This document shows, piece by piece, positions 3,536-47,495 of a stretch of DNA of 64,000 nucleotides. How positions within the stretch are numbered: position 1 is the first letter of the stretch; every line of letters starts with the position of its first letter. Source of the stretch: an uncultured bacterium (GTDB taxonomy: Bacteria; Krumholzibacteriota; Krumholzibacteriia; JACNKJ01); assembly GCA_964410395.1 (NCBI GenBank), contig CAYPGS010000018.1, forward strand, positions 1 through 64,000, in the 5' to 3' direction. Below the pieces are notes generated by a model. It was given only the letters and a program-made list of their open reading frames with translations, had not been told where the DNA came from and ran no database searches. The position numbers and the translations under genes were made by a program.

Positions 3536-3686
3536 CTCTTGCCCTCCCATGGCGAGTTCGGAGTTGACCGACTGTCCCTAAGCATACACCCGCCCGCACC
3601 GATCGTGACGAAGATAGTTGCAGTTTCAAACCCTTGCAGGTGTCATTAGCGTGACCAAGTGCTATCGCATGCGTGGAAATAGAGAT

Positions 3687-3755
3687 CGGGGAGGGATGAG
3701 TCCCTCCCCGACTGACTTTCGAAGCGGAAGGAGGGGAGGGAGCTCATCCCTCCCC
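3687..3755 (-). repeat. Paired G4AG3 hairpin module (copy A), 5 nt downstream of the C25 gene stop
   Basis: Hairpin 1: CGGGGAGGGA-tgag-TCCCTCCCCG (3687..3710). A 22-nt spacer contains GAAGC. Hairpin 2: GGGGAGGGA-gctca-TCCCTCCCC (3733..3755). Probably doubles as a terminator. Confidence 0.6.
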
Positions 3756-3760
3756 AACCT

Positions 3761-6700
3761 CTATTTCAGTAGCACCATTTTCTGGTGCAGCTTGATCTCG
3801 CCCGCGCTCAGCTTGGCGAAGTAGACGCCCGAGGACACCTGCTCGCCGGCCTGGTCGCGGCCATCCCACTCGTAGGCGTGGATGCCCTCGTCCAGCGTAC
3901 CGTTCACGAGCACCCGCACCAAACGTCCGGCGGGGTCGTAGACGGCCAGTCGCGCCTTGCCCGTTTCGGGAAGGCCGAAGCTGATCGAGGTCTTCGGGTT
4001 GAAGGGGTTGGGATGGTTCCGCGAGAGGAAGACGCTCGCCGGAACCACTTCCACCTCGGTACCCGTCTCGTTGACGATGAGCGTCACCGGCACCGCGATG
4101 GAGGGACCCGCGTTGTTCACCACGAGGACCTCGGCCTCGTAGGTACCCTCCACCATGTCGGTGGCGTCGAGGGTCACGCGGATGTCGTCGGTCTCGCCGG
4201 CCTGGAGCTGTCCCTCGGTGATGTCCAGTGAGATCCAGTCCAGGGAGTTCTGGATGGTGAAGAAATCGTCGCTCTCATCGAAGACCGAAGGATCGCCGCT
4301 GTCGGCCACCTTCACCTTGCAGTTCATGTTGCCCGGCGCGTCGACGTTCCACTGGAAGCTGCCGTCATTCGCGTCCACATCGCTGGCGATGAGGTCCCAG
4401 TTGCCCAGGATGCCCCGGCGCAGGTAGATGTCCACCAGTCCCGAACCGCCGCCGGCCGAGAAGCTGATGGTCTGCTGCTCGCCGACGGTCCAGACCTCGC
4501 CGCCATTGGGCGCGAGAACGTTGACCGCGGGACCGTCCATGACAAGGGTGAAGTAGTCCTCGATGTAGTGGGGATCACCGCCGTAGATGTCGCCCTGGAT
4601 GCCGTAGAGCAGATCCAGGTCGCCGCTCACGTCGGGGAAGCTCACGTTGATGCTGGCCGTGGCGGTTTCACCGTCGTAGATGTTACCCCAGCCCCCATCG
4701 TGATCGAACCAGGTGATCAGAGCCCCGTCGCCCGTACCGCTGAAGGAGAGGCTGCCGCTCGGGCCGACGAGATCGGTACCGCTGTTGACCACGGCTCCGG
4801 GCGGGAAGTCAAGGGTGACCTCACTGAGCCACTCCACGTCCGAACTACCGTTGAAGACCGTGACGTTGAAATCCACCGTGGAGCCGACCACGTAGGTGGA
4901 AGGATCCAGCGACAGCCAGGAGCCGGCCACGCTGCGCGGCAGGTTCGGATCGATGATCTCAAGGGAATAGTTCAGAACGGATCCCTCTTCACCCTGATTG
5001 CTCACGTGGAGCATCTCCAGACTCGTGCCGTCCGGAGGCAGGATCTTGGAAATCGACTCGGGCGTCACGACGCAGCTTGGCAGAGGCACCGAGGCCACCG
5101 GCATGAAGGCGATGGCCCGGCCGGTGGTCAGGGTCGCCGCGCTGCTCGGGTAGGAGTTCCAGTAGGTATAGGTCAGGCCGTCGGTCCTGTCCTTGTTCTG
5201 GATGCCCACCGTGCCGTAGCCGTTGGTGCTGTCTGTGTTGTTCACGGTCTTGTACTGCATGAGCAGTATGCCGTCGCCCGTGCTCGTGGGATGGTAGGCC
5301 GGATCCAGAAGAATCAGCTCGAAGTCCTGGAAAGCGCTCGTGGCGCGGTTCTTCAGATTGTCCCACTGGATGATGTAGCGGTGGTTGGCCTCGTCGTACC
5401 AGGTGCTGACGATGTTCGAGGCCTGCTGGTAGAGGTCGTCCCAGAAGACGGCGATGAGATTGTCCGCGCCTCCCGCGCAGGGCAGGTTCCAGTTGCGGTA
5501 GAAGTTCATCTCGGTCTCGCCCATGGCCACCCAGCCATTGGAGCAGATGCTGATCTTGTTGTAGGGCTCGCCGTAGTAGCTGAACTCGAAAGGCAGTTCG
5601 ACGGTCTTGGTGTCGTCCTGTTCCCAACCGTAGTCGCCAAGTCCGAGATCCGTGCCCGGGCCGCCCTGGTTCGGGTTGACCTCCACCCAATCGTAGACCG
5701 GCGCGTACTCGTAGCCGGTGTCGGTGTTATCCACCGCGTAGTAACCATAGCTGTCCGGACCGGTGGGATCGCCCGCGCCGGCCGATCCCACTGTCAGCGA
5801 GAAGTTCACCACATCGGTGGCGCCACCGTTGAAGGTGAGATCCATGGTGAAGGCGGCCTGGTGTCCGGGAACGCAGTCGGAGGTCACGGTGATGCTGAAG
5901 GGGTCGGAGCTGTTCTCGCCGGAACCGCCCATGGGCAGGCTTCCGAAGCCGCCGCTGGGATCGTTGATGACGATCCAGGAGCTGCTGCTGCTGAGCTCGG
6001 CGCTGATGGCCGTTCCGGGAATATTCCCGTCGTTGCGGATCTGCACGCTCAGGGTGCCGGACTCGCCGGGCTCGGGATCGCCGCCGGCGAAGGTGAAGTC
6101 CTCGTAGGTGAAGGCCGCGCTCTGCACGTCGAGCTCCACCAGCGAGGTCCAGGACTGGAAGCCGTCGCTGGCGACCAGATCCAGTTCGATCGTGTGGCCG
6201 CCCGGCGCGTCGCTGGCGATGAGCACGTCGAAGTCCTCGGCGCACCAGACCTCGGCGCCGGAGGCTATGTTGCCGAAGGTCTCCGTGTCGTCCACCACCG
6301 TGACATAGGGATCGGCGCTGGAGAGGGTTGCGCTCACGTTGTTGGCGGTGCCGGTACCCAGATTGCGCAGCGACAGCGGCAGCTCGATGGCCTCGCCGGG
6401 ATTCACGCGATTGTCGCCGTTGCCCTGGCTGTCTCCGCTCATGTCGTCATCGATCTGAATGTTCTCCAGGGCCGCGTAGGCGCTCACGGAGCCGAGGGCC
6501 AGGGATCCCTGGTAGGGCATGTGATTGTGGGACATGACCGTCACGTAGAGCGTGCCGGAGCCGGCGGCCTCGATGGGCAGATTCACCTGTCCCGCCGCGT
6601 TCGTGTAGCCGGTCACACGGATGTCGCCGTCCTTGAAGAGAGCCACGCGCGCGCCTTCGAGAGGTCCGCCGGGATTGCTCACCGTCACGGGCACCGAGCC

Positions 6701-8464
6701 CGCCCCCGTGGGTAGGTTCGCAGGATGCACCACGGTGAGATCCTCGGGGTAGGCCGACCAGAGCTGCGTGACCGGATCGCCCATGAGGTTGTTCCACATG
6801 GACCAGATCTCCACCGTGTTCGGCTGCGAGATCTGGTAGTTGTGATAGAGCTCGTACTTGCCGCGGGTGTGGGCCGATCCGGTGCGGTGGTCCTCGCCGT
6901 TGATCGCGCCGTGCCAGGTGCCCATGTAGTAGCAGTTGTTGTAGCGGGTATGGGTGCCGATGGTGGCCGTGCCCACCGAGGCCACGCCGCCGCCGTTGGG
7001 CGCACGCAGGAAGGCCTCGGAGCGACAGTTCGAATCGCTGGCGAAGCTGCCCGTGTCGCAGGTCACGATGATGGAGAAGGGCAGTTCCTTCTGGTTGCCC
7101 AGGGCCATGATGTGGGCCGAACTCATGCCGCTCATGTGCCAGTAGCCGCGGTAGCCGAAGACGCTCAGGCCCTGGTTGATGCTGGCGGTCATGGCGCTGA
7201 GGAAGTTGCCGCTCCAGATGGTGTCGATCTGCGTGTAGTTGTGCTGCAGCAGCTGTTCCTTGAGCCACTGGTTCACGTAGATGGTGGTGATGCCCGAGCT
7301 GGACGGATCGCCCGTGAGCCCCGCGCGGGTGAACCAACCCGGATCGGTGATGGGAGGATCGGTCTCGTAGGTGACGATCTTGCTGACCACGTCCTCCAGC
7401 TCAGTGGTGCTGGTCACCGAGAGACGTCCGATGTGCACGTCGGCAAGCACATCGCCGCCCACGATGGTCGAGTAGTAGTGGTCGCCTTCGCCCCCGTAGC
7501 CGGAAACGCTCTCGAAGAAGCAGGGAACGGTGATGTAGCCGCTGGCGTCGCCGACCAGGGTGACATGCTCCAGAGGAGGATCGGCGGTGGCGTAGAAGTC
7601 GTCGATGTAGTCTTCCACCTGCCAGTTGTTGCTGCCGGTCTCGTCGGTGGAAACGGCCACCACATTGTAGCCCTGTTTCTCTCGCCATTCGATCAGGGGG
7701 CCCAGCCGGGACAACACGCCGCTGGTGTTGTCGTAGATCATCAGGTAGGAACCGGGCCCGACCTCGGTGACGCCCTCGCGGTAGTAGCCGGAGTCCTCGT
7801 AGTTCAGGACCATGTCCTTGTAGAGCAGGTGGAAGGACTCGGGAATGAACTCCGCGGGCTGAACCGTTTCGCTCGCGAACTCGATCTCGATCTCCATGCT
7901 GCTGGCCACCCGGACCTCCCTGCTCACCGGATCGTATCGCACGGGATTGATGCGCATGGCCGACACGCTCAGGCCGCGCATCATGCCGGGATCGCCGACC
8001 TCCACGTCGGGTGCGACATCGAGGCTGGGAGTCAGGTAGGCGCTTTCTTCCATGACGAAACGCTCGCCATCGTCGGGCTGCACGGGGAAGAGTCGCAGAT
8101 CTGTTAGCACCTGTTCGTTTCGCGACAGCACATTCACCCTGGCACCTGAACCTGCGGGCAAGGCGATGAGCTTGCTTATCACCGGCAGACCCGGATGTCC
8201 GTCGGCGCCGCGGATCCCGCCTCCGGGGATGCTGAGCGCGTCGAAGATCTCGCCGTCCGCCTCGAACTTCTCGAGGTTGAGCGCATCGAGTTCGAAGGAC
8301 ATCCGCAGTCCGTTTTCATCCTGCGACAGGATGCGGAACTCGGGTGCTGACGCAGCCGCGCCGCCTTCGACATCGAGCCGGTGGAGCTGCACTTCGGCGG
8401 CGGCACCAAGCGTGAACAGGCAAAGGGATACCATGGATAGAATCAGGGTGATCGGCGAACGCAT
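3761..8464 (-). CDS. Peptidase C25 (gingipain-like) giant secreted cysteine protease with FlgD-Ig/T9SS-type CTD
   Basis: 1567-aa ORF. Signal peptide MRSPITLILSMVSLCLFTLGAAAE. N-terminal region resembles the gingipain propeptide. Candidate catalytic His (GYRGYWHMSG) and Cys (IIVTCDTGSFAS). C-terminus is NPFNPKTSISFGLP...GVYFAKLSAGEIKLHQKMVLLK. GGAGG SD. Confidence 0.8.
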   Translation of the reverse strand: MRSPITLILSMVSLCLFTLGAAAEVQLHRLDVEGGAAASAPEFRILSQDENGLRMSFELDALNLEKFEADGEIFDALSIPGGGIRGADGHPGLPVISKLIALPAGSGARVNVLSRNEQVLTDLRLFPVQPDDGERFVMEESAYLTPSLDVAPDVEVGDPGMMRGLSVSAMRINPVRYDPVSREVRVASSMEIEIEFASETVQPAEFIPESFHLLYKDMVLNYEDSGYYREGVTEVGPGSYLMIYDNTSGVLSRLGPLIEWREKQGYNVVAVSTDETGSNNWQVEDYIDDFYATADPPLEHVTLVGDASGYITVPCFFESVSGYGGEGDHYYSTIVGGDVLADVHIGRLSVTSTTELEDVVSKIVTYETDPPITDPGWFTRAGLTGDPSSSGITTIYVNQWLKEQLLQHNYTQIDTIWSGNFLSAMTASINQGLSVFGYRGYWHMSGMSSAHIMALGNQKELPFSIIVTCDTGSFASDSNCRSEAFLRAPNGGGVASVGTATIGTHTRYNNCYYMGTWHGAINGEDHRTGSAHTRGKYELYHNYQISQPNTVEIWSMWNNLMGDPVTQLWSAYPEDLTVVHPANLPTGAGSVPVTVSNPGGPLEGARVALFKDGDIRVTGYTNAAGQVNLPIEAAGSGTLYVTVMSHNHMPYQGSLALGSVSAYAALENIQIDDDMSGDSQGNGDNRVNPGEAIELPLSLRNLGTGTANNVSATLSSADPYVTVVDDTETFGNIASGAEVWCAEDFDVLIASDAPGGHTIELDLVASDGFQSWTSLVELDVQSAAFTYEDFTFAGGDPEPGESGTLSVQIRNDGNIPGTAISAELSSSSSWIVINDPSGGFGSLPMGGSGENSSDPFSITVTSDCVPGHQAAFTMDLTFNGGATDVVNFSLTVGSAGAGDPTGPDSYGYYAVDNTDTGYEYAPVYDWVEVNPNQGGPGTDLGLGDYGWEQDDTKTVELPFEFSYYGEPYNKISICSNGWVAMGETEMNFYRNWNLPCAGGADNLIAVFWDDLYQQASNIVSTWYDEANHRYIIQWDNLKNRATSAFQDFELILLDPAYHPTSTGDGILLMQYKTVNNTDSTNGYGTVGIQNKDRTDGLTYTYWNSYPSSAATLTTGRAIAFMPVASVPLPSCVVTPESISKILPPDGTSLEMLHVSNQGEEGSVLNYSLEIIDPNLPRSVAGSWLSLDPSTYVVGSTVDFNVTVFNGSSDVEWLSEVTLDFPPGAVVNSGTDLVGPSGSLSFSGTGDGALITWFDHDGGWGNIYDGETATASINVSFPDVSGDLDLLYGIQGDIYGGDPHYIEDYFTLVMDGPAVNVLAPNGGEVWTVGEQQTISFSAGGGSGLVDIYLRRGILGNWDLIASDVDANDGSFQWNVDAPGNMNCKVKVADSGDPSVFDESDDFFTIQNSLDWISLDITEGQLQAGETDDIRVTLDATDMVEGTYEAEVLVVNNAGPSIAVPVTLIVNETGTEVEVVPASVFLSRNHPNPFNPKTSISFGLPETGKARLAVYDPAGRLVRVLVNGTLDEGIHAYEWDGRDQAGEQVSSGVYFAKLSAGEIKLHQKMVLLK

Positions 8465-9851: not shown

Positions 9852-9874
9852 ACTGAGGACTGAGGACTGAGAAC
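9844..9874 (+). repeat. Left arm of a perfect 31-bp inverted repeat (heptamer TGA ladder)
   Basis: AACTGTGAACTGAGGACTGAGGACTGAGAAC is the exact reverse complement of 10334..10364. TGA at 9849, 9854, 9861 and 9868 covers all three frames. The first TGA is the ACAD stop codon. Confidence 0.9.
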
Positions 9875-9879
9875 TCCGA

Positions 9880-10266
9880 TCAGGGAAAGGTAGGCTTTCG
9901 GTCCACCTTTCTTTTTGGCCGCAATGATTTATGCAAGCCGATGGTCTGCTTTCGAACCGAGACAAGAGCTTTTTCAACCTGGTCGACTCGGTCTTGATCC
10001 AGGAAGCAAAGCCTCTCCGCAAGCAGTACAAGGGTCTCAACTTCATTGACCGAACCCATCGCTATGTCGAGAAAGCGTCGAAACTCAGCTTCTGTATCGC
10101 GCCCGGCCCCTTCAGCGATATTCGAGGGAATTGATACTGCTGCTCTACGAATCTGATTTTGCATCCCGAATTTCTCGCTTCTTGGAAGTGCACTGCTAAC
10201 AGAGTAGACAACTTCAACGAGATCCATCGCCCTTTGCCAAACTGTATACTCTTTGTATTTCCTCAC
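9880..10266 (-). CDS. Four-helix-bundle protein (23S rRNA intervening-sequence protein / Avd family)
   Basis: 128 aa. YTVWQRAMDLVEVVYSVSSALPRSEKFGMQNQIRRAAVSIPSNIAEGAGRDTEAEFRRFLDIAMGSVNEVETLVLLAERL is the family signature. GTG start. Confidence 0.85.
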   Translation of the reverse strand: MRKYKEYTVWQRAMDLVEVVYSVSSALPRSEKFGMQNQIRRAAVSIPSNIAEGAGRDTEAEFRRFLDIAMGSVNEVETLVLLAERLCFLDQDRVDQVEKALVSVRKQTIGLHKSLRPKRKVDRKPTFP

Positions 10267-10333
10267 TTAGAGACCCCCCGCTAAGAACCCTTCAAGCTTG
10301 CGCCAGTATTGAACCATCTTTGATTTTGCCTTC

Positions 10334-10364
10334 GTTCTCAGTCCTCAGTCCTCAGTTCACAGTT
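10334..10364 (+). repeat. Right arm of the 31-bp inverted repeat
   Basis: GTTCTCAGTCCTCAGTCCTCAGTTCACAGTT is the reverse complement of 9844..9874. Confidence 0.9.
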
Positions 10365-26217: not shown

Positions 26218-26811
26218 ATGCGCACATTGCTCACGGCCCTAATCATCCTCGCCACAAGCAGCTTCGCCGCGGCCGTGGATATCACCATCACACCCCTGGA
26301 GTACGCTCCGGAAGGTCGTTGGTACGAAGGCCCCGAAAGCTTCGAGAACGCCTTCCCCCCTAGCGGGTGGCACCTGAACATCGAGAACTCGTCATACACC
26401 TGGTTCAAGGGCGGAGAGCCGGCCTTCGACGGCGTCCACAGCGCCACCATCTTCGGCGACACCCACGGCAGCTACTCGGACGAGTGGTTGGGCTTCAACT
26501 ACTCCTACACTGCCAACGAGATTCTCACCTTCGCCATGCGTGGCGACCGGACCCTCACCGGCACCTGTTACATGTACATCGGTGAAGATCTGATCCTCGA
26601 CTTCAGCGCAGATTGGCCCCTGAACTGGGACGAATGGGGACTGGTCACCGTGGACCTCGGAACCACGAACTACGTGGGCTTCCCCAACGTGGCATTCGAC
26701 TGGAACTACGTGGGCACCATGGGCCCTACCGTCCGCCTGGACATGGTCGAGATCACGCAGGGCGTCTCGACTGCGGTCGGCGATTGGAGCACGCTGAAGA
26801 CCCTCTACTAG
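26218..26811 (+). CDS. Secreted protein, tail ...DWSTLKTLY
   Basis: Signal peptide MRTLLTALIILATSSFAAA. GGAGG SD. 197 aa. Confidence 0.7.
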   Translation: MRTLLTALIILATSSFAAAVDITITPLEYAPEGRWYEGPESFENAFPPSGWHLNIENSSYTWFKGGEPAFDGVHSATIFGDTHGSYSDEWLGFNYSYTANEILTFAMRGDRTLTGTCYMYIGEDLILDFSADWPLNWDEWGLVTVDLGTTNYVGFPNVAFDWNYVGTMGPTVRLDMVEITQGVSTAVGDWSTLKTLY

Positions 26812-38400: not shown

Positions 38401-38668
38401 GGTCGGCGAGGGCAGCCCTCACGTGGCCGATCTCATTCGGGCCGGCCAGGTGCAGATGGTCATCAATACGCCCCTGGGACAGGCCAGTCGCTACGACGAG
38501 GTGCCCATCCGATCCAGCGCCACGGCCATGGACATTCCATGCATCACCACACTGGCCGGCGCCCGCGCCGCGGTGGACGGCATCCGCGCTCAGCGCGAGG
38601 GCCTAGGGGAAGCTCGTGGCCTTCCTTCGCGCTCCGGTTCGGGCGCTCGAGCGGCCAGCCATAGCTAA
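35429..38668 (+). CDS. carB: Carbamoyl-phosphate synthase large subunit
   Basis: 1079 aa. [33 protein letters not shown]..., duplicated ATP-grasp halves and a C-terminal MGS-like domain. The ATG overlaps the carA TGA. Confidence 0.95.
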
Positions 38669-38881
38669 GCCACAAGGCCGCCTCACAAGTCGCGTCTCAG
38701 GAAGCCACTGCGCTTCTTGTTCTGGGATTCCGTACCCGGGTGCAATCGCATAGGTGGATAGTCCACCCGGGTGGACAGAAACGAAGCGGTCCTTGCAGGG
38801 TGCGAAGCAGTACACGTGTACAGTCTCGCTCCGAAACGAAGGGGCTTTCTCCACTCGCTTCGCTTCGCAAAAATAGAAAAC

Positions 38882-38951
38882 GGGGGAGGCAGGATGCCTC
38901 CCCCGAACGATTTGCGAAGCTCTAGTGAGGGGGAGGCGTCCTGCCTCCCTC
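38882..38951 (-). repeat. Paired G4AG3 hairpin module (copy B), 5 nt downstream of the protease stop
   Basis: Hairpin 1: GGGGGAGGC-aggat-GCCTCCCCC (38882..38904). A 24-nt spacer contains GAAGC. Hairpin 2: GGGGGAGGC-gtcct-GCCTCCCTC (38929..38951). Confidence 0.6.
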
Positions 38952-38956
38952 GCTCT

Positions 38957-41839
38957 CTACTTGATGAGAACCATGGTCCGGCTCTTCACCTCTCCGTTCG
39001 CCGAGAGGCGATAGAGGTAGACGCCGCTGCCCACGGGGTTGCCCTTCTGATCGCGACCTTCCCAGATGACGCGGTGCTCGCCGGCGACCATCTGGTCGGC
39101 GATGAGGGTGCGCACCAGGCGGCCGTTGACGTCGAAGACCTTCAGATCCACGCGTCCGTCGGTCTCAAGAGCGAACTTGATCTCGGTGCGCGGGTTGAAG
39201 GGATTCGGATGGTTCTGCTCGAGGCGCAGGGGCACGCCGATGGTGAACTCGTCGTCCACGTTCGTGCCGCCGATGACCGCGTGGATCATGAGGTCATCCA
39301 GGGCGCCCTCGACCAAGGTCGGGATGGTGCCGTCCTTGACCTCGAACTTGAACTGAACCTGTCCGGGCTGTGCGAACAGATCGTGCAGGTAGAACTCGTT
39401 GTCCTTCCAATACGCTTCCATCGAACCGGTGTCGACATCCAGTTCGACCCAGTTGGACCCGCCGTCATTCGAGATGGACGCCGTCCAGGAATCACCCGTG
39501 CGACCGTAGTACCAGTACCAGTAGCTGATGTAAACCTCGCTGGCCTGGGTCAAGTCGTAGATGGGCGAAAGCAGCGTGACCGTACCGCCGGTGACGTCGT
39601 TGAAGTTGTCGGCCTCGCCGGGGGTGTGCTGACCGGTCACCCAACACAGGGTTCCGGGGTGGCTGATGTCGTCCTCGGGCTGTGCGGTGGTTCCGATGGG
39701 ATCCGCGCGCTCCCAGTGTCCCGTGCTGGCGGTGGCTTCGGTGCTCCAACCGGCGTCGATCTCCATGTCCTCGAGGCGCCAGGCCACGAAGAACTTGTGG
39801 AAGACGTTCGGAGCGCCCCAAGGCGAGGTTCCCGTGGTGCCCACGGTGTCCTCGGCGTAGATGTAGTAGTCCACCTGACCGGCCTGCTGCCCCGGAATCT
39901 GTCCGAAGAAGTAGGAACCGTTCATGGTATCCATATCCACGCTGTTCCAGCTGCCGCCGTTGTGGCGGTAGTAGATGGTGGCGGATTCGGGATCCAGCGG
40001 ACCCTCGGTGGACGAGATGGTCGCGCCCACGGTGTAGGGACCATCCATGTCGCCGGTGTCCGTCAGCGGAGTGTGCTCGAAGAGCACGCCCACGAGGATG
40101 GGCGGCACGTCGTAACCGTGATGCGTGGCCGCCGCGGAGAGAATGCTGTAGTGAGGCGTTCCATTGTCGAGGTCGCCGTCGTCGTCGTCGGCCATGAAGG
40201 TCCAGAAGACCTGGTCGGGCTGGTTGGTGGGATGCCCCATCAAACGCCCGTAGTGCCAGCGCTCGGCGGCCATGATGGTGCCCAACTCGTCACCGTAGTT
40301 GGACTGCATTCCCATCATGATGTCCCAGTGGAAGCCCGCGATGATCTGACCGTCGTGGTGGATCTGCCCGTTCATGTCTTCGGGGTAGATCAGGTCGTTG
40401 TCGGAGTTGCGGATTCCGTCGGTGCAGTTGCCCAGGTAGAAGCCGCGGCCGATGATGGACTCCTGCGTCATGAGGTTGGCCAGAACGTCGGAGTTACCTT
40501 CACCCAATCCCTGATCGCCCTGCCATCCGAGGATGGCGGCCTGCACGCCGTGACCGAACTCGTGATGCACCACTCCCTGGATCTCACCGGTGTTGGCGCA
40601 GCCGCCGCCTTCGGTGAAGAAGTTGATGCTGCCGTTCCAGTAGGCATTGCAGTTGTCGTTGAGGCTCACGTAAGCGTTCATCCGCTGGTTCGGCAGCGCG
40701 AACTCCGGAGCCCAGAGCTGGAAGAAGTCATGAATATCGTTGACGGCGTTGAAGACGTCGCGCTCGTCGTTCTGAGCGTTGAGGTCATCGTAAGAGATCG
40801 TCAGCGGAGTCCCTTCCCAGGCGGTTCCCGTGAATGTCGCCTCGGGGCCCCCCGAGTTCGTGATGTTGCAATAGGGACCATAGAGGTCGGCCGTGATCTG
40901 GGCCGTACCGCTGGGGCTGCTCCAATCACCATTCTCGTCGGTATAGACCGTTCCGCTGCCCGCAACCTGAACGCGCAGGTAGGGCACGGACTGATCATGG
41001 ATGCCGTTGCACCAGGTGTCCGGCTGCACTTCGGAGTTCGTGTCGCCTTCGATGAAGAAGTGCACATCGTTGTAGCGCCAGACGATCTCGCCGGTATGGG
41101 CGTCCACGTGGGTCACCCAGATACCGACCGGATCGGCCGTATGCACGCGCAGGCGCCAGACCAGGTGATACTCCACGCTCTCCTCGCTGAGGGGCACAGG
41201 GAGCACGACCAGTTCGGGCGCGGCTTCGACGCTGTCCTCGGCGGGATTGAAGCCGACATCCATGCGCGCGATCTGCTCAGCCTGATCGGCGGAGATGGCA
41301 GGCATGGCGGACAGATCGATATCGTTGTAGAGATCCGAGCCCGCAGCAATCAAGCGTCCATCTTCGGTGAAGGCGGCGAAGGCCTTGCCCTGCCAGACTT
41401 CGATTCCCTCGAAGGTCTGAGCGAGATGAGCGACCCACTTGCCCTTGTAGTTCACGCGATCGGTGATCTGCAACTCAACGCCGGCGGCACCGAGGTGCTC
41501 GGCCTGCTCGTCGAAGAGACGAAGCGTGGCGGCGTCAAGATCCACCGCGGAGCGCATGCCAGCGGTGTAGGCAGTGTTGCCGTAGACGATATGAGGCGTG
41601 CCGGCCTGGGAGTTCCAAGACCAGACATGCCAGTTGCCGCCCAGATCCTGGGCGAGTCCCTCTTCCACCGCGGCGCTAGCCTGGAGCGTCGCGAAGGATT
41701 CATAGATGTGGAGGTCGTAGGTGCCGAGAGGGATGGCGAAATCTTGCGAGTGTTCCGGTGCCTTGAACGCCTGGCTCGTGATGAGAACCAGCGCAAGACC
41801 GAGGGTGGTCAGAGCAAGGCTGAAGCGGGACTGCTTCAC
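38957..41839 (-). CDS. Thermolysin-clan (M36/M4-like) secreted zinc metalloprotease with FlgD-Ig/T9SS-type CTD
   Basis: VVHHEFGHGVQAAILG (HExxH) plus GLGEGNSDVLANL (EGxSD third-ligand motif). AGGAGG SD and GTG 41839. Signal peptide VKQSRFSLALTTLGLALVLITSQAFKA. C-terminus is NPFNPRTEIKFAL...GVYLYRLSANGEVKSRTMVLIK. Confidence 0.8.
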   Translation of the reverse strand: MKQSRFSLALTTLGLALVLITSQAFKAPEHSQDFAIPLGTYDLHIYESFATLQASAAVEEGLAQDLGGNWHVWSWNSQAGTPHIVYGNTAYTAGMRSAVDLDAATLRLFDEQAEHLGAAGVELQITDRVNYKGKWVAHLAQTFEGIEVWQGKAFAAFTEDGRLIAAGSDLYNDIDLSAMPAISADQAEQIARMDVGFNPAEDSVEAAPELVVLPVPLSEESVEYHLVWRLRVHTADPVGIWVTHVDAHTGEIVWRYNDVHFFIEGDTNSEVQPDTWCNGIHDQSVPYLRVQVAGSGTVYTDENGDWSSPSGTAQITADLYGPYCNITNSGGPEATFTGTAWEGTPLTISYDDLNAQNDERDVFNAVNDIHDFFQLWAPEFALPNQRMNAYVSLNDNCNAYWNGSINFFTEGGGCANTGEIQGVVHHEFGHGVQAAILGWQGDQGLGEGNSDVLANLMTQESIIGRGFYLGNCTDGIRNSDNDLIYPEDMNGQIHHDGQIIAGFHWDIMMGMQSNYGDELGTIMAAERWHYGRLMGHPTNQPDQVFWTFMADDDDGDLDNGTPHYSILSAAATHHGYDVPPILVGVLFEHTPLTDTGDMDGPYTVGATISSTEGPLDPESATIYYRHNGGSWNSVDMDTMNGSYFFGQIPGQQAGQVDYYIYAEDTVGTTGTSPWGAPNVFHKFFVAWRLEDMEIDAGWSTEATASTGHWERADPIGTTAQPEDDISHPGTLCWVTGQHTPGEADNFNDVTGGTVTLLSPIYDLTQASEVYISYWYWYYGRTGDSWTASISNDGGSNWVELDVDTGSMEAYWKDNEFYLHDLFAQPGQVQFKFEVKDGTIPTLVEGALDDLMIHAVIGGTNVDDEFTIGVPLRLEQNHPNPFNPRTEIKFALETDGRVDLKVFDVNGRLVRTLIADQMVAGEHRVIWEGRDQKGNPVGSGVYLYRLSANGEVKSRTMVLIK

Positions 41840-42097
41840 GGGGAGCCTCCTATATGGAAGGGGGACATGGGGATTGGATGAGGCGATAATTGTAAATTGT
41901 ACCACATATGAACGGAAATTGGGAACGGGGAAGGGGCCGTGCTGCGGTTCTATGGGGAAGATCGGGGCCCCAACCCCTCATCGAGGCTGACGCCCCGAAT
42001 TCAAGAAGGTGAAGATTTTCCAAGAAAATATAAACTTGCCAGGTCCGCAAGAGGCTAACAGCGTTACCCACCACTTCAAAAAACAGCCAGTTGTGGA

Positions 42098-42670
42098 TCA
42101 GAATAGCTGCTTAATGGCACTCCAGCTGGATTCATGGGTCGCTGTCGGGAACCAGGAACAGTAGCACCAGGATGGATCCGTGCAGTTGAAAGTAAACTGC
42201 CCTCCCATGACATCGACGATCTCGAAATCCGCGTCCACGACCACGAGGCACTCGCAGTCGGCTCCCTCTCCAACCGTCATGATCCAGTCATCGAGGATCC
42301 AGGTGGGATCGAACATCGTGAATTCGATGGATCCCAGGTGGATCAAGGGACCCGGCTGGGGCTCGGAGAAGGCGATGGAGAAGTCCCAGGTGATGTCGCC
42401 GATGATCAAATCGCTGTTCCAGTACTCGTAGGCAGATCCTATCGGATAACCTGGGTTACCCGGATAGTTGGCAATTCGGAATTCAGCGGCCGTGACTGCA
42501 TCGATATCCGGTACGACGGCCATCACATGCACCATCATGGGGACGTACTCTTCGATCGGAGCATGGCATTCGGAGCCCCAGACATCGTCGGCGAAGATTC
42601 CGATGAGACCCTGGGCAATGCCAGGACCGGCTACGGCGAGGCACAACATCACAAGCACGAGTTGGCGCAT
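42098..42670 (-). CDS. Secreted protein (paralogue of 33079..33660), tail ...SSWSAIKQLF
   Basis: GGGAGGG SD and ATG 42670. Signal peptide MRQLVLVMLCLAVAGPGIAQG. Lies between the two M36-like protease genes. Confidence 0.7.
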   Translation of the reverse strand: MRQLVLVMLCLAVAGPGIAQGLIGIFADDVWGSECHAPIEEYVPMMVHVMAVVPDIDAVTAAEFRIANYPGNPGYPIGSAYEYWNSDLIIGDITWDFSIAFSEPQPGPLIHLGSIEFTMFDPTWILDDWIMTVGEGADCECLVVVDADFEIVDVMGGQFTFNCTDPSWCYCSWFPTATHESSWSAIKQLF

Positions 42671-42764
42671 CACATCCCTCCCGTCGAATCGTGGAGCAGA
42701 ACAATTATACACAAATGCCCCATCCTATGGAAAGCGATGGGTAATCTATCGATGCAAATGGAAA

Positions 42765-42832
42765 GGGGAGGGCAGAGGCCCTCCCCGAGTGACATGTGAA
42801 GCTGGAACGAGGGGAGGGCCTCTGCCCTCCCC
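42765..42832 (-). repeat. Paired G4AG3 hairpin module (copy C), 5 nt downstream of the protease stop
   Basis: GGGGAGGGCAGAGGCCCTCCCC (42765..42786) and GGGGAGGGCCTCTGCCCTCCCC (42811..42832) are exact reverse complements. The 24-nt spacer contains GAAGC. Confidence 0.65.
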
Positions 42833-42837
42833 TATGC

Positions 42838-45765
42838 TTACTTGATCAGAACCATCCTCTTGCTCTGGGTGCCCTCTTCCGTGGCGAGTCGATAAAAGTA
42901 GACGCCGCTTCCCACGGGCTCGCCCTGCTCGTCGCGACCGTCCCAGATCACGCGATGCTCGCCGGCGTCCATGTTTCCGGCGGCGAGGTTCTTCACCATG
43001 CGGCCGGCCACATCGAAGACGCTCAGGTCCACGCGTCCGCTCGCCGGCAGCGAGAAGGTGATCTCCGTTCGCGGGTTGAAGGGATTGGGCGCGTTCTGCT
43101 CCAGACGCAGAGGCACGCTCACGGCGAAGTCCTCATCGAGATCGGTGCCGAAGAGCGCGGTGATGGACACGTCGTCGATGGCGGCCTCCACCAGCGAGTT
43201 GTCGCCGGAGTCGTCCGCCACGAACTTGAACTGCACCTGTCCGTACTCGGTCACCCAGTCGTTCAGATCGAAGATCACCGAGACCCAGGCGTTGGTGCTG
43301 GCAGTCGTGGACTCCAGGGCGGTCCAGCTGGAGCCGCCGTCATTGGAGAAGTAGCTGCGCCAGGTGTCCTCGCCCGGATTGGGACCCTTGTCGTTGGAGT
43401 ACCACTTCCAGTAGCGCACGTTCACGGAGCTGGCGCCGGTGAGGTCGTAGACGGGGCTGAAGAGCGTGGTCTTGCCGCCGTCCACGTCGTTGGCGCCGTC
43501 GCTGCTGCCCATGCGTCCGTCGGTGACCCAGCAATCGGTGCCCTCGCTGGTGTGATCGTCCTCGGGCTGAGCGCTGGTGCCGTCGGGATCCATGCGGTTC
43601 CACTCGCCGTCGTCGGCGGTGTCGAAGATGTCCCCCACCGTCCAGCCACCATCCTCCTCGGCCGGATCGATGGCCCAGGCCACCAGGAAACTGAAGGGCT
43701 CGCCCGGCGCGTCATCGGGATGATAGCCCACGGTACCCAGATCGTCCTCGGCGTAGAGGTAGTAATCGACCCGGCCGCCGGAGGTGGGCGGAATCGAGGC
43801 CTCGAACTGGCCGCCGCCCAGATCGCTCATGCCCGACTCGACCCAGAGGCCGCCCTCGTAGCGATAGCGCAGTTTCACGGTGGACGGGTCGATGTTGCCC
43901 TCCACGGACCAGATGGTCGCCTCGATGGGGTAAGCATTGTCGCTGTCGGTGGTGTCGTCCAGAGGCGCGTGCACGAAGACGATGCCCGCGGGAATCGGAC
44001 ACTCGAAGCAGTGGTTCTCGGCCGCCTCGCAGTAGATGTCGCCGTGGGGCGTGCCGTTGAGGATGTCATCGTCGTCGTCGTCGGCGATGAAGGTCCAGAG
44101 CACCTGGTCGGGCTGGTACTCGGGATGTCCGAGCACGCGGCCGTAGTGCCAGTTGCTCGCCGCCACGATCGTACCCGGCGAGTCCCAGGCGCTTTCGCCG
44201 CCGTCGTAGAGTTCCTGCAGCAAGACCATGGCGTCCCAGTTGAAGCCGGCGATGATCTGGCCATCATGGTGAACGCTGCCGTTGAGGTCGGAGGGATAGC
44301 AGAGATCGTTGTCCGAGTTCCGGATGCCGCTCACGCAGTTGCCCAGGTAGAAGCCCCGGCCGATCACCGAATCCTGGGTGATCAGGTTGCCGAGAATGTC
44401 GCTGTTGCCCTCGCCCAGGCCCTCTTCGCCCTGGTATCCCAGGATGGCCGCCTGCACGCCGTGACCGAACTCGTGGTGCACCACCTGCTGCAGCTCGCCC
44501 GTATTGGCGCAGCCGCCGGCGCTGTAGCAGAAGTTGATGGTGCCGTCCCACCAGGCGTTGCAGGGACAGTAGCCGTCGTCCCGGTTGATGGTCGCGTGGA
44601 TTTGCTGGTTGGCATAGGCGAACTCCGGCGCGAAGAGCTGGAAGAAATCGTGGATGTCGTTCACCGCGTCGAAGGTGTCCAGCTCGTCCTGGCGCGCGTT
44701 GCCGGAGTCGAAGTCGACGGTGAAGGGAACATCCTCGCTCACGACGCCGCTGAAGGAAGCTTCCTGCCCCTGGAAGTTGGTCACGTAGACATAGGGACCG
44801 TGAAGGTCGGCGCTGACGCTGCGATCGCCTCCGCTTCCCGCGATGGTCCAGTTGCCGTTCTCGTCGCTGGTCACCGTGCCGAGGCCGGCCACGTCAATGT
44901 CGAGGTAGGGAATCGTGGCCACGGTGATGCCGTCGCACCAGCCGTAGATCTGGGCGTCGATCTCCGTGTCGCCGCCGTAGGCAAAGTGGATGTCGTTTCG
45001 GCGCTGAAGGATCTCGCCGCTGTGGGCGTCCACGTCGGTGACCCAGATGCCCAGGGGCTCTTCGGTGCGCACCCGCACTCGCCAGACCAGGTGATGCTCC
45101 ACCTCTTCCTCATTCAGGGCAACCGGCAGCACATGGAGCACGCTCTCCCCGTCGAGGCGATCGGTGCTCGGGTCGAAGGGCAGATCGCCTCGGGCGATGT
45201 CCTCGGCCGCCAGGCGCGAGTAGGCGGGCAGGGTCGAGAGCTCGAGATCCGAGTAGACGTCCGATCCCATGAGCAGTAGTGAGCCGCTGTCGCTGAAGAG
45301 CACCACGGCCTTGCCGCCCTTGACCTCTACGCCTTCATGGACCTGCTGGAAGTGTACGGCCCACTTGCCCCTCGCATGTTCCACGGCCGCGAGGCGCAGG
45401 TTCTCACCGTTCGTGCCGAAGACCGAGGGGTGATCCGCGATGACCCGCCAGGCCGCGGCCTCGGCATCGGCCTCTCTGGACAGACTCGCGCCCATGGCGA
45501 TGGGCGAACCATAGACGTAGTGCGGCGTGCCGGTGCGCGCATTCCAGGACCAGACCTCCCAGTCCACGTCATGGCGCGCCTTGAGCTCGGATTTCAGCGA
45601 GCTCATGGCCTGCTCGACCGCAAAGGATCGGTACCCATGAAAATCGAACTCGGGAAAACGGATTTCATACTCGTCGTTCTGATCGACGGGCATGAAGGCG
45701 AAGCTGGCGGGCGCGAAGAGGGCCAGGATGGCCGCGATGAGACGTAAGGGGACGTTCGGGCGCAT
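42838..45765 (-). CDS. Thermolysin-clan (M36/M4-like) secreted zinc metalloprotease with FlgD-Ig/T9SS-type CTD (paralogue)
   Basis: VVHHEFGHGVQAAILG plus GLGEGNSDILGNL. Start at ATG 45765, with signal peptide MRPNVPLRLIAAILALFAPASFA. The track's 46095 start is an Arg-rich extension that overlaps the next gene. C-terminus is ...GVYFYRLATEEGTQSKRMVLIK. Confidence 0.8.
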   Translation of the reverse strand: MRPNVPLRLIAAILALFAPASFAFMPVDQNDEYEIRFPEFDFHGYRSFAVEQAMSSLKSELKARHDVDWEVWSWNARTGTPHYVYGSPIAMGASLSREADAEAAAWRVIADHPSVFGTNGENLRLAAVEHARGKWAVHFQQVHEGVEVKGGKAVVLFSDSGSLLLMGSDVYSDLELSTLPAYSRLAAEDIARGDLPFDPSTDRLDGESVLHVLPVALNEEEVEHHLVWRVRVRTEEPLGIWVTDVDAHSGEILQRRNDIHFAYGGDTEIDAQIYGWCDGITVATIPYLDIDVAGLGTVTSDENGNWTIAGSGGDRSVSADLHGPYVYVTNFQGQEASFSGVVSEDVPFTVDFDSGNARQDELDTFDAVNDIHDFFQLFAPEFAYANQQIHATINRDDGYCPCNAWWDGTINFCYSAGGCANTGELQQVVHHEFGHGVQAAILGYQGEEGLGEGNSDILGNLITQDSVIGRGFYLGNCVSGIRNSDNDLCYPSDLNGSVHHDGQIIAGFNWDAMVLLQELYDGGESAWDSPGTIVAASNWHYGRVLGHPEYQPDQVLWTFIADDDDDDILNGTPHGDIYCEAAENHCFECPIPAGIVFVHAPLDDTTDSDNAYPIEATIWSVEGNIDPSTVKLRYRYEGGLWVESGMSDLGGGQFEASIPPTSGGRVDYYLYAEDDLGTVGYHPDDAPGEPFSFLVAWAIDPAEEDGGWTVGDIFDTADDGEWNRMDPDGTSAQPEDDHTSEGTDCWVTDGRMGSSDGANDVDGGKTTLFSPVYDLTGASSVNVRYWKWYSNDKGPNPGEDTWRSYFSNDGGSSWTALESTTASTNAWVSVIFDLNDWVTEYGQVQFKFVADDSGDNSLVEAAIDDVSITALFGTDLDEDFAVSVPLRLEQNAPNPFNPRTEITFSLPASGRVDLSVFDVAGRMVKNLAAGNMDAGEHRVIWDGRDEQGEPVGSGVYFYRLATEEGTQSKRMVLIK

Positions 45766-45872
45766 GAACCGGAGACCTCCGATGGAGCGGGAATGGGATT
45801 CGGTGCAGGGTTTAAGTATACCGCTTCCGGCCCCCGCGACCAAGGCCGCCGGCCATCGAGGACTCCTGGATC

Positions 45873-46502
45873 CTAAAGCCCTCGCAGGAAGGGGTTTGAG
45901 GCGGCCTCCTCCACGAGACTGCTGTCGGGACCGTGTCCGCTGTGAAGAACCGTGGAAGGCGGCAGCGCATCGATGATGCGCTCCTTGATCGAGCGCATGA
46001 GCGTGTCGTAGTCGCCGCCCGGCAGGTCGGTGCGGCCGATGGATCCGGCGAAGAGGGTGTCGCCGGCGAAAAGATGACCGTTCAGGCTGAGACACACGCC
46101 CCCGGGACTGTGACCCGGCGTGTGGATGACGCGCACCTCCAGCTCCCCCACCGCGACGGTTTCGCCATCGCGAAGGGGCTCGTCCAGGCGAGGAGGCTTC
46201 GCGGGCTCGATGCCATAGAGGCCACAGATCTGCTCGAGGTTCTCGACCAGGAAGCGGTCGTCCTCATGCATGCGGAAGGGGATCTCGAGACGGCTCTGCA
46301 GCTCCGCCGCGCCCAGCACGTGGTCCACATGGCCGTGAGTGTTCAGGATGCTCTCGATCTGGAGTCCATGCTGCTCGGCGCGGGCGATGAGGGTCTCCAC
46401 CTCGCCGCCTGGATCCACCACGAAGGCCTTCTTCGTCGCGGGATCGCCCACGAGGAAGGTGTTCTCCTGGAATGCGCCCACGGTGAGCATCTCGACGATC
46501 AT
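45873..46502 (-). CDS. MBL-fold hydrolase (hydroxyacylglutathione hydrolase-like)
   Basis: 209 aa. ILNTHGHVDHVLG (HxHxDH) and VIHTPGHSPGG. Confidence 0.8.
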   Translation of the reverse strand: MIVEMLTVGAFQENTFLVGDPATKKAFVVDPGGEVETLIARAEQHGLQIESILNTHGHVDHVLGAAELQSRLEIPFRMHEDDRFLVENLEQICGLYGIEPAKPPRLDEPLRDGETVAVGELEVRVIHTPGHSPGGVCLSLNGHLFAGDTLFAGSIGRTDLPGGDYDTLMRSIKERIIDALPPSTVLHSGHGPDSSLVEEAASNPFLRGL

Positions 46503-47495
46503 CTATCCTCCGATACGGGCCAGGGAATGCAGTTCGCCGTCGTCACCGTCTTCGAGACGGTGCTTCTCGGGCTTGTGCAGGAGCGCGGCGCGGATGCCCT
46601 CCTCCAGCGCGCGCTCCCAGGCCTCGCCCTCGAGAAGATGGCGCAGGGAGAAATTCTGCGCGCCGAAGAGGCAGCCGCGCATCTCGCCGCGATGGGTCAG
46701 GCGCACGCGATTGCAGTTGTCGCAGAAGTTCTCGCCCAGGGGGTGGATGATCCCCACGCGCAGGCCGTCGGACTCGCGCCTGAACATGCGCGCCGGTCCG
46801 TCGGGACCGCGGCGTTCGAGCTCCGTCCAGTCGCCGTTCTCGCTCATCCGCGCGAGAATGTCCTCGCCGCTCATTCGCCTCGTCTCGAAGAGTTCGCGCG
46901 CCACGCCCACGGGCATCAATTCGATGAAGCGAAGTCGCAGACCGCGATCGGCGGACAGGTCCAGGAAGTCCGTGAGCTCTTCGTCGTTGATGCCGAGCAT
47001 GGGCACCACGTTGAGCTTGATGGGATCGAGCCCCGCCGAGAGGGCGGCGTCGATGCCCTCGATGACGCGGGCAAGTTCCCCGCGGCCGGAGATCTCGCGG
47101 AAGCGCTCGGCATCGAGGGTGTCCAGGCTCACGTTCACGCGGGACAGCCCCGCGCGGGCAAGATCATCGGCCAGGGGCGCTAGGTGCATGGCGTGTGTCG
47201 AAAGGCTCACCTCGCCGATGCCATCGATCTTCGTAAGCCGGCCCACGATTTCCACGAGATCTTTTCTGAGCGTGGGTTCGCCGCCCGAGAGGCGCACCTT
47301 TTCGACACCCAGGCGTGCGAAAAGGGTCACCAGTCTCTCCCATTCCAGTGGGCTCAGTTCTTCCCGCGGGCCCTCGGGCAGCACGGGGCCGCCGGGCTGG
47401 CAGTAGAGGCAGCGGAAGTTGCAATAGGGAGTCACCGAGATCCGCAGGTAGCGGATGGACCTGCCGAAAGGATCGATGAGGGGGGCCAGGGTCAC
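46503..47495 (-). CDS. moaA: GTP 3',8-cyclase (molybdenum cofactor biosynthesis protein A)
   Basis: LRISVTPYCNFRCLYCQP radical-SAM CxxxCxxC, a C-terminal CDNCNRVRLT second cluster, and a GG C-terminus. GTG start with GAGGAG SD. Confidence 0.9.
   Translation of the reverse strand: MTLAPLIDPFGRSIRYLRISVTPYCNFRCLYCQPGGPVLPEGPREELSPLEWERLVTLFARLGVEKVRLSGGEPTLRKDLVEIVGRLTKIDGIGEVSLSTHAMHLAPLADDLARAGLSRVNVSLDTLDAERFREISGRGELARVIEGIDAALSAGLDPIKLNVVPMLGINDEELTDFLDLSADRGLRLRFIELMPVGVARELFETRRMSGEDILARMSENGDWTELERRGPDGPARMFRRESDGLRVGIIHPLGENFCDNCNRVRLTHRGEMRGCLFGAQNFSLRHLLEGEAWERALEEGIRAALLHKPEKHRLEDGDDGELHSLARIGG

Follow-up and report, generated by a model that had tools for sequence, protein, structure and literature searches.

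A position-locked long-hairpin element directly downstream of exported-protein genes in several uncultured bacterial lineages

Results

Three protease genes are each followed by a large inverted repeat

The 64-kb stretch of DNA analysed here (hereafter, the window) carries three genes, designated A, B and C, for proteases of 980-1570 aa. All three proteins end in a FlgD_ig-type T9SS sorting domain, and each of the genes is followed by the module that is the subject of this report. Two other genes of the window, of the S8 and WD40 types, lack the module despite the presence of the sorting domain in both, as had been remarked when the DNA was first read from its sequence alone. The genes concerned are as follows.

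3761..8464, minus strand: gene A, C25 (gingipain-family) peptidase with FlgD_ig sorting domain, ending ...QKMVLLK-TAG
38957..41905, minus strand: gene B, M4/M36-like protease (PepSY, MAM-like) with FlgD_ig sorting domain, ending ...SRTMVLIK-TAG
42838..46095, minus strand: gene C, M36/FTP-like protease with FlgD_ig-type T9SS C-terminal sorting domain, ending ...KRMVLIK-TAA
14699-17761, plus strand: S8 gene with the same sorting domain, without module
2240-3550, minus strand: WD40 gene with the same sorting domain, without module

At all three sites the minus strand reads, in order, a stop codon, a 5-nt linker, a first arm of 22-23 nt, a spacer of 23-24 nt and a second arm of 22-23 nt, and the spacer of every copy includes GCTTC (GAAGC on the plus strand). 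The parts of the three copies, all on the minus strand, are listed below.

42832..42765, minus strand: copy C, whole
42833..42840, minus strand: copy C stop codon TAA (42838-42840) and 5-nt linker GCATA
42811..42832, minus strand: copy C left arm GGGGAGGGCAGAGGCCCTCCCC (hairpin 1 of the earlier, sequence-only reading)
42787..42810, minus strand: copy C apical spacer TCGTTCCAGCTTCACATGTCACTC, of a class found again in other genomes
42765..42786, minus strand: copy C right arm (hairpin 2 of that reading), the exact reverse complement of the left arm
42755..42764, minus strand: copy C U-rich tail TTTCCATTTG
38951..38882, minus strand: copy B, whole
38952..38959, minus strand: copy B stop codon TAG (38957-38959) and linker AGAGC, both paired with the tail in the predicted fold
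38929..38951, minus strand: copy B left arm GAGGGAGGCAGGACGCCTCCCCC
38905..38928, minus strand: copy B apical spacer TCACTAGAGCTTCGCAAATCGTTC, the same sequence being present in at least 8 loci of other genomes
38882..38904, minus strand: copy B right arm GGGGGAGGCATCCTGCCTCCCCC
38871..38881, minus strand: copy B U-rich tail GTTTTCTATTT, complementary to AAGTAGAGAGC just before the left arm
3755..3688, minus strand: copy A, whole
3756..3763, minus strand: copy A stop codon TAG (3761-3763) and linker AGGTT
3733..3755, minus strand: copy A left arm GGGGAGGGATGAGCTCCCTCCCC
3710..3732, minus strand: copy A apical spacer TCCTTCCGCTTCGAAAGTCAGTC
3688..3709, minus strand: copy A right arm GGGGAGGGACTCATCCCTCCCC
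3676..3687, minus strand: copy A tail GATCTCTATTTC, complementary to GAAATAGAGGTT just before the left arm

The sequence-only reading had described one architecture shared by three minus-strand loci, and this description was borne out. The pattern GGGAGG-N(4-16)-CCTCCC matches the window six times, exclusively as three pairs (3689-3754, 38884-38949 and 42766-42831), whereas dinucleotide-preserving shuffles average 0.36 matches and never exceed 2. The coordinates given by that reading stand for copies C (42832..42765) and B (38951..38882), but its end for copy A (3687) lies one base too far and is corrected here to 3688. It was also right that the second arm is the reverse complement of the first, exactly so in copy C; copy B has 2 mismatches and copy A a 1-nt indel. 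In copies A and B the inverted repeat extends over linker and stop codon as well, so that its arms reach 34 nt at 82-85% complementarity. The interiors of the three copies differ, and only the outer G/C arms are common to them.

A covariance-model scan found no further copy in the window, and no Rfam family matched any part of the window at the gathering threshold; a permissive Rfam scan of copy B returned only generic long-hairpin (miRNA precursor) models below threshold. Coding or read-through across the module was considered and rejected, as the lengths of linker, arms and spacer vary and no reading frame is conserved.

The modules belong to a family found in several uncultured lineages

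A generic two-hairpin pattern, applied to one genome per species, found 4 true homologues among the matches listed; most of the listed matches were unrelated hairpin pairs with GGGGAGG stems, spread over many phyla. The homologous locus L018 is ~90% identical to window positions 38195-46760. A second pattern was anchored on the spacer and arm 2, with no constraint on arm 1, stop codon or tail; it was far more productive and yielded 80 metagenome loci. Scores for a reverse-complementary arm 1 at these loci were bimodal (at least 13 or at most 8) and delimited 35 true copies, of which 33 are unique. Thirty-one copies served to build a covariance model; scanned against 304 kb of related loci, together with the window, it added a few diverged copies from the related loci. 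In all, ~40 homologous copies were recovered from metagenomes and metagenome-assembled genomes (MAGs) related to Eisenbacteria/Krumholzibacteria. Because the search pattern selected arm 2 of most copies, the perfection of that arm is there by construction; the evidence free of search bias lies in the flanks and tails, in arm 1, and in those copies that only the model detected. ORF calls in the related loci are mechanical.

Proteins homologous to that of gene B and to OmpA come, where their source is named, from Candidatus Eisenbacteria or Krumholzibacteria, and three loci that carry these labels (L201-L203) lack the element. Elsewhere, the element is kept at orthologous loci across genomes, at protein identities of 47-95%. 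Judged by these sequence comparisons, the family is spread over several uncultured lineages, and the three modules of the window are members of a conserved, previously undescribed family. We came across no account of such an element, whether for T9SS genes or for these phyla, in our literature searches, and no shared post-transcriptional signal of T9SS cargo there or in Rfam.

The element is locked to the stop codons of exported-protein genes

Far from being scattered without positional preference, the motif lies in one orientation at one place: in 31 of 31 scorable copies a long ORF on the same strand ends just ahead of arm 1, whose start is 2-7 nt past the stop codon, with a mode of 5 and the majority at exactly 5. 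The stop codon before the element is always TAA or TAG, and TGA ends none of the 35 module-bearing genes, compared with 27% of the long ORFs in the same loci (P ~2e-5). The downstream neighbour is co-directional in ~19 of 32 cases, at a median gap of roughly 200 nt, and convergent in ~13 of 32.

At a distance of 2-7 nt from the stop codon, the base of the hairpin would touch a terminating ribosome or be partly melted by it, and the hairpin may affect translation termination. Escherichia coli REP hairpins located within 15 nt of the stop codon stall ribosomes and lower expression, according to the summary in PMC12306157 of the work of Liang et al. (2015). By analogy, comparable ribosome stalling is possible at the window element.

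The suspected association with FlgD-CTD genes also holds in the wider family, the upstream ORF ending in a T9SS sorting domain (...KM[VLM][LM][LI]K, then stop) in 29 of the 31 scorable copies. One of the two exceptions (L194) follows a gene for an OmpA-type outer-membrane protein. The other (L143) follows an NYN-domain gene, and there the element lies between two convergent genes, the second of which is a sorting-domain gene. An orthologue of the OmpA gene in L205, which belongs to the same MAG as L018 and encodes a protein 70% identical to that of L194, carries a B-type module directly after its stop codon. These OmpA orthologues with the element, in two genomes, have no T9SS sorting domain. 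Other OmpA orthologues lack the module and are followed by a simple terminator (L206) or by a single hairpin and U tail (L207). The sampled loci also contain 11 sorting-domain genes without the element. RNA downstream of sorting-domain genes folds more stably than that downstream of other genes (-54.6 vs -40.9 kcal/mol per 115 nt). The association with sorting domains could partly reflect co-duplication of the domain and the sequence downstream of it.

Covariation supports a single long hairpin

RNAalifold gives 31 copies a consensus structure of one long hairpin, formed by arms 1 and 2, with compensatory changes at 11 of the 19 pairs. Pair counts were made on a MAFFT alignment, which is fitted to no structure. 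On this alignment 89.7% of cells in the long hairpin are paired (77.0±0.9 in shuffles), 104 cells are changed on both sides (35±6 in shuffles), and the covariation score is 0.394, against 0.167 in shuffles and at most 0.141 in slid controls; the paired fraction, the number of double changes and the covariation score were each reached by 0 of 500 shuffles. The two local hairpins, by comparison, are 82.5% paired versus 81.7% when shuffled, with a covariation score of 0.153 versus 0.144, and 99-190 of the 500 shuffles did as well. The arms are also complementary when no alignment is used: arm cores match at 0.80 within a locus and at 0.385±0.03 between loci (maximum 0.50 in 5000 permutations). 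Complementarity has been maintained through 30 different cores among 32 copies, which upholds the earlier claim that co-variation within each locus reflects selection on structure.

Pairing is not confined to the arms. The 16-nt flanks pair better within than across loci (339 vs 287±10 positions, p≤2e-4), the linker at 81% and the stop and Lys codons at 72%, and pairing reaches ~11 nt into the flanks, stop codon included. For each window copy the minimum-free-energy fold is the long hairpin, at -64 to -73 kcal/mol (z = -6.4 to -9.5), and the two-hairpin alternative is less stable by 17-19 kcal/mol.

Two distant relatives decide the same point. A syntenic locus whose protein is 51% identical (L204) has one copy with arms GAGGCGACGAGTTCCYTCC, which are not self-complementary. 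At 47% identity and a GC content of 70%, L200 has three tandem paralogues. Directly behind the TAG of each come an arm of 26 nt, the loop GCTTCACA and a second arm of 27 nt; these arms show compensating differences between the paralogues and are not locally palindromic. As the arms of L204 and L200 are not palindromic, the 'paired hairpins' of the window are an alternative fold of one long hairpin. The picture of two hairpins at each locus, with which the sequence-only reading had begun, does not survive: the covariation belongs to the pairing of arm 1 with arm 2, and on these grounds, together with the non-palindromic arms of the relatives, we reject the two-local-hairpin model.

The chemistry of the base pairs does not decide between pairing at the level of RNA and of DNA, because G·U and A·C mismatches are balanced in the arms, with no strand bias (7 vs 7 in the cores); their asymmetry in the flanks is driven by composition. 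Evidence for a role at the RNA level comes from two other features: the element keeps one orientation towards its gene, and its U-rich tail is one-sided.

In the lineage of the window each arm is palindromic, such that local and long-range pairing can compete, and it is conceivable that the element exploits this as a translation-sensing attenuator in the manner of a trp leader. A ribosome paused at the stop codon would cover the 5' half of arm 1, the freed 3' half of arm 1 and the core would pair with the 5' half of arm 2 as an antiterminator, the terminator hairpin of arm 2 could not form, and transcription would read through into downstream genes; without the ribosome, both local hairpins would form and transcription would terminate. 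The stop spacing does place the base of arm 1 at the mRNA entrance of the ribosome, core complementarity would strengthen the antiterminator pairing, and a co-directional gene lies downstream of more than half of the copies. We nevertheless regard such a mechanism as very unlikely: covariation gives the local hairpins no support (the local helix of arm 1, unconstrained by the search pattern, is 73.8% paired), the arms of the relatives cannot form local hairpins, and in the copies that face a convergent gene read-through would have no target.

The tip of the hairpin is conserved in sequence

The 22-25-nt tip of the hairpin is strongly conserved in sequence, as TC..GCTTC.[A]..TC..TC, in which GCTTC, an A and the TC dinucleotides are invariant. 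Spacer identity is ~0.73 over all pairs of copies and nearly independent of sorting-domain divergence (r = 0.12), and among orthologues it rises to 0.92-1.0; arm cores (~0.47) and tails (~0.52) are at background level. At least 8 loci, with sorting domains at 45-75% identity, have exactly the same 24-nt B-type spacer, and at least four spacer classes recur. Between close orthologues the cores diverge roughly like neutral flanking DNA yet remain complementary. By these comparisons the stem is constrained in structure only, and the tip in sequence.

We found nothing beyond chance when the window was searched for complements of the three spacers, as possible base-pairing targets, and the 5' regions of genes A, B and C, whose start codons are uncertain, offered no obvious pairing partner for them. 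The conserved tip would most likely be the recognition site of a trans-acting factor.

Spacer types are incongruent with sorting-domain relatedness. Window copy B has a B-type spacer and L159 an A-type spacer at a sorting-domain nucleotide identity of 0.80, and L155, L163 and L167 likewise carry differing spacer types. This suggests occasional replacement or conversion between loci. It is also a point for a rival account, a selfish repeat of the REPIN/BIME kind. In that account a RAYT transposase moves two inverted REP units in the form of a single-stranded DNA hairpin, the repeat simply accumulates downstream of genes, and any effect on termination or stability is incidental. The element resembles such repeats in its two inverted palindromic units with conserved G-arms, a linker of discrete and strongly conserved types, and a long hairpin with compensatory changes; moreover, many unrelated genomes have their own families of paired hairpins with GGGGAGG stems. 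We consider this origin improbable all the same. The position and orientation of every scorable copy are fixed and nearly all copies belong to one gene class, the cores differ even within a genome or contig and give no sign of recent bursts, and the element is retained at orthologous loci. The spacer is the most conserved part of the element and the least conserved part of REPINs (PMC3116915). A weaker point is that no Y1-transposase (RAYT) family occurs among the genes called in 11 annotated loci (~0.25 Mb).

A U-rich tail follows, and ordinary terminators occupy equivalent sites

A scan for terminators detects arm 2 in each window copy; the tails are TTTTCTATTT, TTTCCATTTG and CTCTATTTCC. 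Among the 32 copies examined, all 32 have at least 5 T in the 8 nt after the right arm (T fraction 0.62), compared with 11 of 32 on the opposite strand. The module had earlier been set apart from simple terminators on the premise that no U-tracts follow it; the premise is wrong, and the exclusion of a terminator role falls with it, ordinary hairpin-plus-U terminators alternating with the module at orthologous sites. The accompanying view that the module is more than a generic terminator is supported by the many different, still complementary cores.

Like an intrinsic terminator, the element has a stable G+C-rich hairpin with a U-rich tract immediately behind it, and it lies where a gene ends. 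Intrinsic terminators typically have a stem of ~5-14 bp and a loop of 3-8 nt. The local hairpin of the right arm has 9-11 bp and a loop of 3-5 nt; the stem supported by covariation has at least 22 bp and a 24-nt apical region.

In L018 the orthologue of gene C is followed, 52 nt after its stop codon, by an arm-2-like hairpin and tail only, at the same distance as in the window, the linker, arm 1 and spacer (51 nt) being replaced by unrelated sequence. Terminators of the form GCCCCTCCC-N3/4-GGGAGGGGC with a T-run stand at the equivalent place in L151, L168, L160, L205 and L207. Since the L018 site, the OmpA sites and orthologous or neighbouring sorting-domain sites carry either one or the other, the element and ordinary terminators stand in for each other at equivalent positions. 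Canonical hairpin-plus-U terminators are used elsewhere in the lineage, for example after the window gene at 26218-26811.

The long hairpins of L200 lie between tandem paralogues and lack good U-tracts, and a separate canonical terminator follows the last one. The L200 hairpin is therefore probably not itself a terminator, and it looks more like an intercistronic stabiliser or processing site.

Discussion

Our analysis establishes the anatomy, conservation, covariation, position and gene association of a hairpin element that follows genes for exported proteins. As to what the element does, we infer termination, stabilisation and factor binding. On balance, we think it probable, if by a modest degree of confidence, that it is a strong intrinsic terminator and 3'-end stabiliser of exported-protein mRNAs, in the form of a single long hairpin whose tip is likely to bind a factor. 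The terminator and stabiliser role is suggested by the position of the element, its polarity, its U-rich tail and its interchangeability with ordinary terminators.

The mechanism that we propose is as follows. The element, of ~90-105 nt, would be transcribed as the 3' UTR of exported-protein genes (T9SS cargo and, in relatives, OmpA). Its functional form would be a single long hairpin in which two G/C-rich arms of 22-25 nt pair together, and the U-rich tail pairs with the linker and with the stop and Lys codons. The hairpin would zip while RNA polymerase transcribes the right arm and the U-rich tail, leading to release of the transcript by intrinsic termination. Once formed, so stable a hairpin (-60 to -68 kcal/mol) would block 3'-to-5' exonucleases and leave the mRNA with a long-lived 3' end. 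Inverted REP pairs of E. coli block 3'-to-5' exonucleases and stabilise mRNA 3' ends.

Some features sit uneasily with a terminator. A stem of 22-34 bp with a 24-nt apical region is atypical of one, and a terminator role leaves the sequence conservation of the tip unexplained. The arrangement in L200, of intercistronic hairpins with a separate terminator, likewise speaks against it.

A different function can be proposed for the tip. The long hairpin could display the apical sequence GCUUC-R-N-A..UC..UC to a dedicated trans-acting factor, whether an RNA-binding protein, a small RNA or RNase III, and so act as a post-transcriptional tag that co-ordinates the fate of T9SS-cargo and outer-membrane mRNAs. 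Fate would here mean stability, processing, localisation or termination-coupled translation, and by analogy the system would be a bacterial counterpart of the histone 3' stem-loop, or would act in the manner of lambda sib retroregulation. Conservation of the tip sequence whatever the divergence of the flanks, alongside conservation of the stem in structure only, is what such a tag would lead one to expect, and the loop motif GCTTCACA is kept in the distant lineage of L200 with entirely different arms. Restriction to exported-protein genes, including OmpA orthologues in two genomes, and the placement of the L200 hairpins between tandem cistrons upstream of a separate terminator point the same way. 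A perfect RNA duplex of at least 22 bp is, besides, a classical RNase III substrate. However, we found no candidate binding partner, and spacer complements in the window do not exceed chance; the sorting-domain genes without the element indicate that it is not obligatory for cargo expression; and several distinct spacer classes fit a single reader poorly. We therefore hold this proposal to be tentative, and rather unlikely to be correct.

To our knowledge, bacterial 3' UTR elements common to one functional gene class are rare. The element described here joins three properties, namely strong long-hairpin covariation, sequence conservation at the tip and constant spacing from the stop codon, and it offers a testable handle on how these secretion-heavy, proteolytic bacteria adjust the expression of the proteins that they secrete. 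Read conservatively, as a terminator and stabiliser, it is a well-defined new motif that could improve the annotation of gene ends in MAGs and serve as a strong insulating terminator.

Comparison with known systems

Intrinsic terminators, including bidirectional ones with an A-tract on one side and a U-tract on the other, are among the closest parallels. The element shares with them a G+C-rich hairpin and U-rich tract just after the stop codon, flanks that are A-rich on the left and U-rich on the right and complement each other, and interchangeability at orthologous sites. It differs in its stem of 22-34 bp and its 22-25-nt apical region of conserved sequence, and in being a sequence family of one gene class, held at a fixed distance from a stop codon that lies inside the stem.

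Several recombination-associated elements were considered and rejected. Integron attC sites are imperfect inverted repeats that follow cassette ORFs, with R''/R' core sites (GTTRRRY), in arrays beside an integrase. The ends of the element are AARTAR.../...CTATTT with no GTTRRRY, its conservation is central rather than terminal, and the genes are not cassettes. A DGR hairpin, a CRISPR and a retron were likewise dismissed, there being no core sites, template repeat, arrays or associated enzymes nearby.

Long UTR hairpins that are cleaved by RNase III are known from the Correia elements of Neisseria and from lambda sib. The element resembles them in its long, near-perfect duplex, which could be an RNase III substrate that modulates the stability of the upstream mRNA. 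It differs in having no transposon-like target duplications, and its conserved apical loop has no counterpart there. In eukaryotes, the 3' stem-loop of histone mRNAs is also a conserved, gene-class-specific stem-loop shortly after the stop codon. This is an analogy only: there is no homology, the domain of life is another one, the stem of the element is much longer, and its binding protein is hypothetical.

REP-type repeats are a close parallel in architecture, and the sequence-only reading had likened the modules to REP/BIME-like elements or to a 3'-UTR stability or regulatory element. The first likeness is apt for the inverted palindromic units around a conserved linker; the idea of a dispersed repeat fails on the fixed position, the orientation, the gene class and the conserved spacer. 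REP and BIME sequences of enterobacteria also occur in 3' UTRs close to the stop codon, where pairing of the units is expected to give a stable 3' hairpin, and the malE-malF REP is an mRNA stabiliser. With BIMEs the element further shares inverted palindromic units joined by discrete, conserved types of linker, there being at least four spacer classes. Its interiors, on the other hand, differ in nearly every copy, and it is confined to one gene class and one orientation in an unrelated host lineage. BIMEs occur as many near-identical units dispersed in a genome; the 64 kb of the window hold three copies of the element.

REPINs are distributed at random in extragenic space, have highly conserved arms and a spacer that is their least conserved part, and are associated with RAYTs (Bertels & Rainey 2011, PMC3116915). 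The element is, like them, a symmetric inverted doublet that forms a long hairpin with compensatory changes. It is nonetheless locked in position rather than random in extragenic space, although the search pattern required neither a stop codon nor arm 1; its order of conservation is the opposite one, with the spacer above the arm cores; and it is different in every copy within a genome.

The element also illustrates that a REP/BIME-like architecture can be maintained vertically as a position-locked cis element, rather than as a dispersed repeat. By its sequence features it appears to be new, being a long-hairpin 3' element that is locked in position, specific to a gene class and conserved in its apical sequence, and in function it would probably resemble known terminators and REP stabilisers.

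The protease array and the sequence near copies B and C

The genes for the M36-like T9SS proteases, two or three paralogues in tandem, make up a syntenic array (window positions 38957-46095; L199, L200 and L204 in other genomes or metagenomes), which is kept as protein identity falls from 95% to 47%. Upstream of the array lie AlkZ-like, WXXGXW, MoaA-like radical-SAM and metallo-beta-lactamase genes, and carB is convergent toward it in both the window and L199.

One ORF lies downstream of copy C, the hairpin module that follows protease gene C:

42098-42712, minus strand: ORF of 204 aa with a signal-peptide-like N-terminus

This window ORF had no Pfam match, and its counterpart is mostly deleted in the 90%-identical relative L018, where only the start and the last ~70 nt remain (L018:3932-4170).

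Two short sequences were observed close to copy B, the module that follows protease gene B. A near-perfect palindrome, TGTACACGTGTAC(A), is found ~50 nt downstream of this copy (window ~38810-38823), and also in L018 (3943-3958), where it immediately follows the gene C orthologue's stop codon; the palindrome may be an operator or a further intergenic motif that recurs. Right behind the copy B tail, window positions 38860-38871 read TTTGCGAAGC(GAAGC), a perfect 10-nt complement to the copy's own spacer core, GCTTCGCAAA. Such a complement behind the tail is absent from the other copies with a B-type spacer, and its presence here may be due to chance.

Atypical copies of the module

Several copies in relatives are unusual. 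Behind the B-locus module of L018 (7334-7540) comes a tandem duplication of ~127 nt, which contains half of the spacer, arm 2, tail and ~60 nt of flanking sequence a second time and has no arm 1; L176 contains a half-copy that resembles this duplication. The L134 module (4835-4947) carries the identical core GAACA in both arms as a direct, not an inverted, repeat, so that its cores are unable to pair; nevertheless, the stop codon of a sorting-domain gene lies 4 nt ahead of this module, whose score is 57.6 bits. Lastly, the L143 module (668-785) sits between a sorting-domain gene and a convergent NYN-domain gene, with the two stop codons 6 and 4 nt from its arms, such that the CTATTT tail, read on the opposite strand, provides AAATAG, the Lys and stop codons with which the second gene ends.

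A possible small cassette elsewhere in the window

A separate 521 bp stretch (9844-10364) lies between an acyl-CoA dehydrogenase gene and a Band_7 gene and has the appearance of a small inserted cassette. The repeats at its ends enclose a gene:

9844-9874 and 10334-10364: perfect inverted repeats of 31 nt each, built of ACTGAGG heptamers
9880-10266, minus strand: 23S rRNA-intervening-sequence protein gene, 128 aa (PF05635, E = 5.5e-35)

Similar stems in unrelated genomes

Paired or tandem hairpins with GGGGAGG/CCTCCCC stems form a separate multi-copy family in each of several unrelated genomes:

L004, L014, L047 and L089: Thermoanaerobaculia SMAG_U12005
L024, L027, L106 and L107: Roseomonas sp. 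GC11
L015, L076 and L079: Viridilinea
L022 and L028: Abditibacteriales

The spacers of these families differ and a link to stop codons is not obvious; the families look like lineage-specific REP-like repeats.
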